From the IMG/VR virus record IMGVR_UViG_3300044719_000028, positions 1-64,000 of that record: a stretch of DNA of 64,000 nt; one strand, given 5' to 3'. The stretch's first letter is position 1; every line of letters begins with the position of its first letter. The notes beneath the pieces were generated by a model. The model did no database searches. It was given only the letters and a program-made list of their open reading frames with translations, and had not been told where the DNA came from. Made by a program: the position numbers and the translations under genes. Below, one piece after another: positions 10,654 to 19,315 of this stretch. The stretch is from a virus (Duplodnaviria > Caudoviricetes).

Positions 10654-10684
10654 GACAGACAAGGTAGGGAAAGCATCACAGAAC

Positions 10685-10711
10685 GGGCCTCTTCGGAGGC
10701 TCTTTTCTTTT
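10685..10711 (+). terminator. intrinsic terminator (copy 1 of a 33-bp repeat)
   Basis: GGGCCTC-TTCG-GAGGCTC-TTTTCTTTT. Confidence 0.8.
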
Positions 10712-11180: not shown

Positions 11181-11188
11181 TACAGAAT

Positions 11189-11214
11189 GGGCCTCTGCGG
11201 AGGCTCTTTTCTTT
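11189..11214 (+). terminator. intrinsic terminator (copy 2 of a 33-bp repeat)
   Basis: GGGCCTC-TGCG-GAGGCTC-TTTTCTTT. Confidence 0.8.
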
Positions 11215-11870
11215 GCTCTAATGAGTGTGTACACACAGGTTGACAAGATGCGTAGATCGGTAATTGGGGACATAGTGCTATGTAGGTCTATTATTTAGAC
11301 CGTTATTGATTTAGCAAAACTTCATTCCTGTTCGGTAATCGCACAACCTTGGGCATCAACGAGGGGTATATCAAGCTACCTGATATCAGTTTACCTTACA
11401 TTGATTCATAACCAAATGGTTATCTATTGCAGCATGCCTGCACAACACGGCGTGATAGCGTGACGAGACAGCGCCTACCAGCAGCAGGGCAGCAGCTAAC
11501 GAGGCGCTAGGGCTGTGAGAGGACAATCAGCGTAGGTAGACGTAGGACGAGCGAATAGAGGGCCGCAGAGGGGCGCTATGAGGCTCAGAGAGGGGATTGT
11601 GTGGGTGGAGCTAGGCAGGGATGGGCAAGCGTGCGCTGATGGGAGGGTGCGAGGAGTAGGCTAGAGGAGGGCAAATTGAGGAATGTATATGCCCGTTTAG
11701 GTTTGTAGATGACCCGGCTCGGATATTTTGCAGGGCAGAGAGGGGCGTTTTTCCGTGCTGGCTGGCCCTATTAAGCAACGAAACCGCCTCAGCAAATATT
11801 TACGACCTACCCCTGCCAAAGTGATCGCACAAGATGCCACTTGCCAAAAAATTTTCATACCAAAAATGCC
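11215..11870. other. non-coding convergence region (candidate genome terminus/packaging or recombination region)
   Basis: No credible ORF; several palindromes, G-rich + strand tract, repeated TGCCAAAA. Confidence 0.45.
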
Positions 11871-11900
11871 AAAAAGGAGGTATGCCCGAAAGCACCCTCC
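11871..11900 (-). terminator. intrinsic terminator after the recombinase genes
   Basis: On - strand GGAGGGTGC-TTTCGG-GCATACCTCC-TTTTT. Confidence 0.65.
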
Positions 11901-11976
11901 TTCTGCACAGATATTTTCTGTAGATATTTCTTTAGAATCAACCCACTAGATGTGTTTCCTAAAGTAAATTTTTAAA

Positions 11977-12642
11977 TTAATTCCACCTAGAAATCACCCT
12001 GCAAATGCTTGCTGCACTCCAATCGCCACCTCGTGCAGTAGGAATGTTCAGAGCATTCATTTCTTTAGCGATTTCCCCATACGTCATCCCACAATTCTTC
12101 ATGCGCTCGATTGGTGGACGCACATGAGCGGCAAACCTGTCAGCTTTCTCTTTGATGACAGCCGTTGCCTTCTCACGGGCTTCATTCAGGTTCGTCCGAT
12201 TGCCAAGAATGACACCACGAGCCTTAGCAGCAGCCAACCCTGCTTTGGTTCGCATCCCAATCATCTTGCGCTCTTTCTCAGCAAGCCCTGCAAAGATTGT
12301 CCCAACAAACTCGTCGTGCTCTTGTCCAAGATCGATTGCAACAACCAGCTTCTTTTTCTGGATCAGTTCACGCGAGATGTCGAAGTCACGGCTGCAACGA
12401 TCACTCTTCGTCACAACCACTTGAGCCTTCATTTTCTTCGCCATAGTCAGCGCCATAGACATGACAGGGCGATCTTTCAAAGGAGTGCTGCCAGAGATAA
12501 CCTCGTCCATCACAGTGATGAGATTGTAGTTGTTCCGCTGCGCCCACAGTTCGATTTCTGCACGCTGAGATTCAAGGCCGTTCTTCGACTGACCTTGTTC
12601 GCGGGTAGAGACCCGGCACACTCCAATGAAAGACTTTTTCAT
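11977..12642 (-). CDS. serine recombinase (resolvase/invertase family, 221 aa)
   Basis: RVST nucleophile motif, DRCSR motif, helix AEKERKMIGMRTKAGLAAAKARG, C-terminal EIAKEMNALNIPTARGGDWS DNA-binding domain. Confidence 0.92.
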   Translation of the reverse strand: MKKSFIGVCRVSTREQGQSKNGLESQRAEIELWAQRNNYNLITVMDEVISGSTPLKDRPVMSMALTMAKKMKAQVVVTKSDRCSRDFDISRELIQKKKLVVAIDLGQEHDEFVGTIFAGLAEKERKMIGMRTKAGLAAAKARGVILGNRTNLNEAREKATAVIKEKADRFAAHVRPPIERMKNCGMTYGEIAKEMNALNIPTARGGDWSAASICRVISRWN

Positions 12643-12720
12643 GATTGCTCCTTGAGACGTTTAGATGAAACACCTGATGGCGTTTAGATTGCTCAATAAT
12701 AGGTAAATAAAACCAAGTTG

Positions 12721-13341
12721 TCAACCTATTTTCAGAATATTTTCAATTACATCAACAGACCAGAAGCCATCTAGAGTTTCCATACGAATGTTTTCCATGT
12801 TGGTGACTACTTCCTCCATAGTGAGCCCATATTTCAGAAGGTTCTCAATCATAGGCTTTTTGTTTTGAGCAAATCTTTTTCTTCCCTCTTCACTCACCCT
12901 AACAACGTCTATTCCTTCGAATTCGCACCGCACACGATTGTTCTCTTGAGCTAGGATAGCAGACATACTGACGTGTAAATGATCTGCTCTCATGCCGTGC
13001 TTTGCGGAAATGAATCGTATTGTTTTGTCGGTATTCAACTCGTACACCAAAGCTGCGTACTCTGTTAATCTGTCTACATCTGACACTAACAATACACATC
13101 TTTTCTGGTTCTTACAATCTTGGAGTGCTTGCTGTAGAACAGGTCTGCTGTAAGGTTCTAGCGACCCGGCCGCAGTCTCTCTTGCTGCACCTATAACAGA
13201 TAGTCCGTTCATATCTGCGAATGCGAACATCCTTTCTTCTTGAACTTCAAAGCTCAACTCGTCCTGCCAGTAAGGCGAAACCCTGCTGTACATGATTACA
13301 TTCTTAATTTTAGATATTTGTTTCTCAAGAGGATGTTCCAT
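12721..13341 (-). CDS. divergent serine recombinase paralogue, probably inactive (206 aa)
   Basis: YSRVS and SRPVLQQAL present; DRLxR replaced by DRLTE; helix E shortened. Confidence 0.75.
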   Translation of the reverse strand: MEHPLEKQISKIKNVIMYSRVSPYWQDELSFEVQEERMFAFADMNGLSVIGAARETAAGSLEPYSRPVLQQALQDCKNQKRCVLLVSDVDRLTEYAALVYELNTDKTIRFISAKHGMRADHLHVSMSAILAQENNRVRCEFEGIDVVRVSEEGRKRFAQNKKPMIENLLKYGLTMEEVVTNMENIRMETLDGFWSVDVIENILKIG

Positions 13342-13369
13342 ATGTTGCTCCTGTTAGTTATGTGTTTGT

Positions 13370-13398
13370 AGAGTACACATTTTGCTCGCGCATGTCAA
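13370..13398 (-). promoter_or_regulatory. sigma70-like promoter for the recombinase pair
   Basis: TTGACA-17-TACTCT on - strand, followed by AGGAGCAACATATG. Confidence 0.65.
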
Positions 13399-13407
13399 CC
13401 CACAACA

Positions 13408-13431
13408 ACAAAAACCCGGCACAAGGCCGGG
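13408..13431 (-). terminator. intrinsic terminator
   Basis: CCCGGC-CTTGT-GCCGGG-TTTTTG on - strand. Confidence 0.7.
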
Positions 13432-13487
13432 CATGAGCAACGCGAATACGTCCCCGCCAACATTCGTCAGCGAGCCTGCGAGCGACA

Positions 13488-19242: not shown

Positions 19243-19315
19243 AGCGGGGTAGTGTAACGGTAGCACGTTAGGCTCATAACCTATCAGTCCAGTTCGACTC
19301 TGGCGACCGCAACCA
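19243..19315 (+). tRNA. trnM: tRNA-Met(CAT), initiator-like, degenerate or possibly pseudo
   Basis: Loop CT-CAT-AA, TTCGACT, CCA; 1:72 mismatch plus mismatches at 6:67, 7:66 and 49:65. Confidence 0.65.

Follow-up and report, generated by a model that had tools for sequence, protein, structure and literature searches.

A phage genome of about 89 kb contains two neighboring genes of the serine recombinase family. Gene A looks like an active enzyme and belongs to the core, single-copy recombinases of a group of related phages. Gene B lies directly upstream, keeps the catalytic fold and very probably is non-catalytic. A glutamate stands at the position of one active-site arginine, helix E lacks its C-terminal half, and neither the arm nor the DNA-contact residues near the C-terminus remain. 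These losses are shared by a small clade of B-like proteins. B sits in a hypervariable slot, where several sister phages carry the opposite construction, an HNH N-terminus joined to the recombinase C-terminal half. We lean towards a reading in which A is a working enzyme and B is a non-catalytic, facultative accessory of this slot, most likely modulating A or the DNA sites of A.

The two-gene locus

The window analyzed here covers 64,000 nucleotides (positions 1 to 64,000) of the IMG/VR record IMGVR_UViG_3300044719_000028, which is the complete 88.7-kb genome of an uncultivated phage. The genome encodes the large terminase, portal and major head protein, a class Ia ribonucleotide reductase and an exonuclease, and no tyrosine integrase was found in its 88.7 kb. 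This set of structural and replication genes agrees with the virulent-looking phage described in the initial annotation of the same DNA. Gene A (positions 11977–12642, minus strand) is intact and encodes a small serine recombinase of 221 aa. Gene B (positions 12721–13341, minus strand) encodes a putative pseudo-recombinase of 206 aa. B is transcribed first and A second, head to tail with 78 nt between them, and the two co-oriented resolvase-family ORFs lie exactly where they had been annotated. They are the only resolvase-domain genes in the 88.7-kb record. Both match the Pfam Resolvase family (PF00239, cut-off 23.3 bits), A over the whole profile with 85.3 bits and B over profile positions 1–123 of 145 with 43.5 bits. 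PHROGs assigns the pair to DNA-invertase and serine-integrase families. The two proteins are 24% identical in sequence, and one block of about 23–24 residues is absent from B. The GC content is 41.7% for B, 50.0% for A and 46% for the window. A megablast search of the locus against GenBank phages gave no match. B was also considered as a recent duplicate of A, and this origin was rejected on the 24% identity and on a tree that groups B with a B-like clade and not with A.

Gene A is a conserved, active-looking recombinase

In A a catalytic domain is joined through a full helix E and an arm to a short C-terminal DNA-binding domain that resembles a recombinase domain and gives a short partial match to PF07508 ('Recombinase'). 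The catalytic domain carries R-V-S and the D-R-x-x-R motif (as DRCSR). Residues Arg10, Ser12, Asp81, Arg82 and Arg85 are invariant in an alignment with 22 relatives, which also shows little or no variation in TARGG-x-W, a motif of the C-terminal domain. Across the A family the LN and T-A-R-G-G motifs are near-invariant. In the AlphaFold2 model (pLDDT 88.4, pTM 0.58) helix E is 31 residues long (111–141) and is followed by an arm of 10 residues and a C-terminal domain of three helices. The pTM value is what is expected for two flexibly linked domains. Motifs and model agree with the RVS, DRCSR and full helix E reported earlier for this gene. A therefore has the whole catalytic set, comprising the nucleophilic serine and the equivalents of Arg8, Arg68 and Arg71, together with a full helix E and arm.

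More than 1300 homologues of A were identified, many of them 60–92% identical and encoded on contigs of 80–98 kb. When 20 related phage records of about 90 kb were searched whole (13 of them complete genomes), A was the single resolvase-domain gene in every one. Within this group of ~90-kb phages, the small serine recombinase A looks active and is encoded by a single-copy core gene. Near A, no long inverted or direct repeat pairs, no invertible segment and no pair of res-, hix- or gix-like sites were found; the only candidate sites are the short ATCTAAACG copies described below.

Gene B keeps the catalytic fold and has lost catalytic and DNA-binding features

B carries R-V-S but has DRLTE in place of D-R-x-x-R. 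The equivalents of Tyr6, Arg8, Ser10, Asp36 (as Glu), Arg45, Asp67 and Arg68 are retained, and among the residues tabulated only the equivalents of Arg71, which is Glu, and of Ser39 are changed. The residues that B lacks relative to A form, in A, the arm and the second (C-terminal) half of helix E. AlphaFold2 models a helix E of 22 residues for B, against 31 for A, and no arm for B. The RVS, the DRLTE and the truncated helix E had all been noted before, and the models bear this out. The predicted structure of B is very confident (pLDDT 93.6, pTM 0.84) and compact rather than two-lobed. A Foldseek search with this model returned the catalytic domains of TP901-1, Sin and gamma-delta.

The C-terminal domain of B has a three-helix frame, which aligns helix for helix with that of A and with the HNH chimeras described below. 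It lacks the LN and TARGG residues, and it matches neither Pfam nor the chimera profile. The initial annotation had described a retained DNA-binding motif here. The fold of such a domain is indeed present, and the hallmark LN and T-A-R-G-G residues are not. B has no HNH match, so the N-terminal HNH (His-Me finger) feature of the chimeras is absent from it.

With Glu at the Arg71 position, B lacks the complete catalytic set, and it lacks the full helix E and arm. Olorunniji and Stark reported that mutants of Tn3 resolvase at Tyr6, Arg8, Ser10, Asp36, Arg68 or Arg71 are greatly reduced in cleavage and recombination (PMC2794168). B is very probably non-catalytic. The case is made by the Arg71 position, by the deletion and by the behavior of the whole clade to which B belongs, and it supports the earlier description of B as a dead paralogue. 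Since the nucleophilic serine and five of the six crucial residues are kept, some residual chemistry would be possible on sequence alone.

Promoters, terminators and repeats

The promoter of A (positions 12696–12724, minus strand) consists of TTGACA, a 17-nt spacer and TATTAT. It agrees with the consensus in 11 of 12 positions and is the best sigma70 match in the region. This promoter is conserved upstream of A in every relative examined, at the same position in L009–L018, whatever gene precedes. The stop codon of B (TGA, 12723 to 12721) falls within the −35 hexamer of this promoter, and in sister phages the upstream gene likewise stops in or at the −35 box of A. B has a promoter-like site of its own (positions 13370–13398, minus strand), read from the sequence as TTGACA, a 17-nt spacer and TACTCT. 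This site is under the scan threshold because its −10 hexamer is weak. The leader of B is A/C-rich and has an AGGAG ribosome-binding site ahead of the ATG, which is the usual early-gene format of this phage. Immediately before the promoter-like site, a terminator-like hairpin (positions 13414–13432, minus strand; −14 kcal/mol, followed by a U-run) ends the upstream transcription unit. The intrinsic terminator of A (positions 11860–11905, minus strand) is a stronger hairpin (−22.3 kcal/mol, z = −3.2), also followed by a U-run and kept in relatives. The terminator placed behind A in the initial annotation is thus well founded. The single promoter proposed for both genes is not, since A and B each have their own promoter-like site and the best match sits between them. 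There is no terminator between B and A, so A may also be read from the B promoter.

The leader of A contains two direct copies of ATCTAAACG (positions 12658–12689, minus strand, at 12658–12666 and 12681–12689), which are 23 nt apart and represent a candidate operator or binding site. Three exact copies occur in the window, compared with 0.39 expected. Two of them are in the A leader of this phage, and the leaders of the sister phages examined have one conserved copy. In L009, L010 and L018 a related copy also lies 270–390 nt past the stop codon of A. This downstream copy has the same orientation and is found at about +940 to +1047 from the start of A in these three loci. The direct repeats flanking A could be operator or recombination sites.

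Between A and the convergent early genes on the plus strand there is an ORF-free zone of about 650 nt (window positions 11215–11870). It is G-rich on the plus strand and 68–83% identical in sister phages, with invariant blocks. A search of this conserved non-coding zone downstream of A against Rfam gave no match. Candidate explanations for the zone are a non-coding RNA and a DNA element that acts in cis and may include the target of A. A 33-nt direct repeat at 10678–10710 and 11182–11214 (94% identical) contains a GC hairpin and a T-run. The two copies look like duplicated terminators that end successive early plus-strand cassettes. Elsewhere in the window, Rfam places a third tRNA at 19244–19311 (plus strand, 40.1 bits) between tRNA-Thr and tRNA-Gly, where ARAGORN reports none.

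The variable slot upstream of A

The slot upstream of A is hypervariable among relatives and ends exactly at the −35 box of A. In six sister phages (L009–L012, L014 and L015) the slot gene encodes a chimera of 150–190 aa with an HNH N-terminus and the C-terminal half of a recombinase. These genes are on the plus strand of their loci, at L009:3481-3945, L010:3475-3945, L011:3475-3939, L012:3388-3948, L014:3484-3939 and L015:3452-3952. The recombinase part of the chimeras runs from the second half of helix E through the arm to a DNA-binding domain of the A type, and it is 34–45% identical to residues 132–219 of A. Similar chimeras are found beside A-like genes in the more distant contigs L030 (4245-4811, minus strand), L043/L044 (L043:4624-5142) and L059/L060 (L059:4525-5073 and L060:1314-1745). 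Taken together, the chimeras are 140–190 aa long, adjoin A-like genes and sometimes occur as tandem pairs. They fit homing-type selfish nucleases located at the promoter and operator of the recombinase gene. The slot of other relatives holds an unrelated protein of about 400 aa with a C-terminal HNH, or small unrelated genes. The ~400-aa protein is encoded at L017:2751-3950, and homologous ORFs take the same slot in L018, L019, L025 and L028. The chimeras and these larger proteins together suggest that HNH nucleases of two unrelated architectures target one junction. On L030, a 16-kb IMG/VR contig, the A-like gene is inverted with respect to an upstream block that is otherwise syntenic (c3, c102, c27, c55 and the HNH chimera), which shows at least one rearrangement of the recombinase gene by itself.

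The phage studied here has no HNH chimera, and the chimera profile matches only the C-terminal half of A. The chimera of the sister phages takes the same slot as B, directly upstream of the A promoter, has a C-terminal domain homologous to that of A, and is variable among relatives. Their make-up is reversed. In the chimera an HNH domain replaces the catalytic domain, and TARGG, the arm and the second half of helix E are kept. B keeps the catalytic fold, whereas the arm, half of helix E and the DNA-contact residues are gone. As aligned, B and the chimera are complementary fragments of one recombinase scaffold.

The clade of B-like proteins

B is a singleton in a word-based search of 5.8 billion proteins. 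With HMMER, 1.84 billion representative proteins yielded only six relatives that match over the full length (P0122 to P0127), with 30–35% identity, and the matches below these are ordinary recombinases that match the catalytic domain alone. The B clade comprises seven clusters with one or two members each. The seven proteins are monophyletic in a maximum-likelihood tree (100/100 support) with terminal branches of 0.6–2.0 substitutions per site, and A falls in a separate, tight clade of that tree. In the alignment all seven share a common N-terminal extension and an identical 24-residue gap. The Arg71 position is occupied by E, E, E, I, K, K and K and never by Arg (0/7). The nucleophilic serine is lost in four or five of the seven and is clear only in B; by the A1 alignment the position reads D, D, D, H and H in five members, one of these being ambiguous. 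Ser39 is lost in six of the seven, and the TARGG motif of the C-terminal domain is gone in all seven. The seven proteins all agree at eleven residues, among them Y-x-R of strand 1 and S-R-P-V, which contains the Arg45 equivalent. No close relatives of B were found in IMG/VR with B, P0122, P0123, P0124 or the clade alignment as queries, nor in the JGI metagenomes with P0124.

The inactivating changes are common to the clade and hence should be old, preceding more than one substitution per site of divergence. Every member is nevertheless a full-length ORF of 206–221 aa despite more than 65% sequence divergence. From these alignments and the tree, the B clade is a group of rare, previously undescribed, old and fast-evolving degenerate recombinases. 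A search of the full-text literature found no description of a maintained, catalytically dead serine-recombinase paralogue.

The top match to B among GenBank phages is an unannotated small serine recombinase of 251 aa in Vibrio phage ICP1 (L008:3989-4744; 2017 DRC isolates, MW794148). It lies in a variable region, in a gene block that is without the 'previously called GP' labels of its neighbors. This tblastn match was tried as a B-like protein and rejected, as it has intact R-x-S and D-R-x-x-R motifs.

The history of the clade bears on the possibility that B is functionless, an inactive remnant of a selfish serine-recombinase cassette that was inserted upstream of A and is heading to loss. 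B is lineage-specific, its clade is very divergent and rare, and its slot is hypervariable and otherwise home to homing-type HNH genes. The low GC content of B points the same way, yet a selfish passenger acquired recently and a useful accessory gene would account for it equally well. Against such decay, B is an intact ORF of 206 codons with a promoter-like site and a ribosome-binding site, and its fold is predicted with very high confidence. The inactivating changes are clade-wide, and the retention of full-length ORFs and 11 invariant residues through saturating divergence argues for purifying selection on a non-catalytic function. We consider a functionless remnant rather unlikely. The initial annotation had named a lineage-specific, decaying duplicate as the outcome that would overturn its proposal. 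The absence of B from sister phages fits the first half of this, and the decaying duplicate is contradicted by the clade and its full-length ORFs.

B beside A in other phages

Among 159 A-like loci from IMG/VR and JGI metagenomes, none has a B-like neighbor. Together with the 20 related records, all of which have A only, this indicates that A works without B. Some co-occurrence is suggested by three pairs of contigs that have the same size and come from the same source. The B-like P0241 and the A-like P0002 (92% identical to A) are on contigs of identical size in Logan (1989 bp), the B-like P0126 and the A-like P0042 likewise (1795 bp, Logan), and the B-like P0124 and the A-like P0040 are on contigs of 84,824 bp in JGI. 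These pairs suggest that B-like genes, where present, adjoin A-like genes. They also suggest that, in a phage with an A that is 92% identical, the identity between the B-like gene and B is only about 34%, which would fit cassette exchange or very fast evolution.

The initial annotation had seen in the two genes a dedicated heteromeric recombination system, with B as a non-catalytic architectural or directionality subunit at accessory sites. The two genes are adjacent and co-oriented, the proteins have a common fold and a homologous C-terminal domain, and the three contig pairs may be further cases of a shared contig. However, a search for recurrence of the pair across phages gave the opposite picture, with A alone in 20 of 20 records and no B-like neighbor at any of the 159 loci. 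B is also poorly equipped for such a role. Canonical site binding uses the arm, the second half of helix E and TARGG, which would also be needed at accessory sites. B has none of these, and its model is compact rather than DNA-clamping. The two genes also have separate promoters. A fixed heteromeric system is thus improbable, and the architectural subunit proposed for B is not supported.

Possible role of B

It is very improbable that B is a still active recombinase with an unusual active site, giving the phage two independent recombination systems: the equivalents of Tyr6, Arg8, Ser10, Asp36 (as Glu), Arg45, Asp67 and Arg68 are retained, but the Arg71 equivalent is Glu, a position at which Tn3 resolvase mutants are severely defective (PMC2794168), B is without the arm and half of helix E, and the closest relatives have Asp or His for the nucleophilic serine.

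The reading that we favor, with some reserve, remains that of B as a non-catalytic accessory to a working A. A function for B is proposed on the basis of its confident compact fold, its own promoter-like site and ribosome-binding site, and the clade-wide retention of the ORF. A would be expressed from its own conserved host-type promoter as a working recombinase. B would be a structurally intact protein, expressed early and descended from the same kind of recombinase. The change of its Arg71 equivalent to Glu would have abolished catalysis, helix E has lost its C-terminal half, the minor-groove arm is missing, and the C-terminal domain is without its conserved DNA-contact residues. Such a protein would not recombine DNA and most likely would modulate A or its DNA sites. 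Two routes can be envisaged. The catalytic core and the N-terminal part of helix E, both retained, may let B associate non-productively with A, or B may occupy the duplicated ATCTAAACG sites in the A leader.

The fast divergence of B points away from housekeeping and towards a part in conflicts among co-infecting phages or selfish genes. In a more specific and quite speculative form, which we regard as improbable, B-like proteins would be pseudo-recombinases engaged in conflict over recombinase loci. They could be immunity or occupancy factors of the hot-spot, shielding the A promoter and operator from the nucleases of co-infecting sister phages, in which HNH is joined to a recombinase DNA-binding domain. 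Or they could be trans-dominant inhibitors acting on the serine recombinases of competing elements. Either role, if true, would make B the first functional 'dead' serine recombinase.

Much work has been done on serine recombinases, both as enzymes and as tools for genome engineering. At this locus one recombinase scaffold appears to have been dismantled in two complementary ways, with both products at the same promoter junction. If B modulates A or guards its site, it would be a natural inhibitor or regulator of a serine recombinase and would open a view onto gene-level conflict in virulent phages. Even with a functionless B, the locus would clearly illustrate a homing hot-spot. The anatomy is clear and unusual, the clade is tiny, and B is dispensable in relatives.

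Comparison with known systems

A viral inactive paralogue that acts as a modulator is known from vaccinia virus, in which the B12 pseudokinase stands beside the B1 kinase (PMC6395007). The likeness to gene B is one of concept only, as the enzyme class is unrelated.

The closest structural comparison is with the resolvase/invertase group. The catalytic fold is shared with Tn3/gamma-delta resolvase, Sin and Gin/Hin (Sin and gamma-delta, together with TP901-1, being the Foldseek matches), and profile matches include Gin, gamma-delta and Tn3. A has the full residue set, the long helix E and the arm of these enzymes. Its C-terminal domain corresponds to a short stretch of the 'Recombinase' domain known from large serine recombinases and not to the HTH_7 domain found in the resolvase/invertase group. 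B is unlike this group in that it is without Arg71, half of helix E and the arm.

A similar architecture is found in genes annotated as 'resolvase / DNA invertase' in virulent phages (phrog_125), the products of which are about 220 aa long and 32–38% identical to A. Examples are in phAPEC8-like phages of the genus Phapecoctavirus and in Vibrio phage 1.170.O, which are phages without lysogeny genes. No dead paralogue is recorded alongside these genes. To our knowledge, genes of this type are known by annotation only, and we know of no demonstrated function for them.

Two adjacent paralogous serine recombinase genes on one element are also present in SCCmec, as CcrA and CcrB. Both of these are large and catalytically competent. 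Unlike CcrA/CcrB, the pair described here has one degenerate partner, which is dispensable in relatives.
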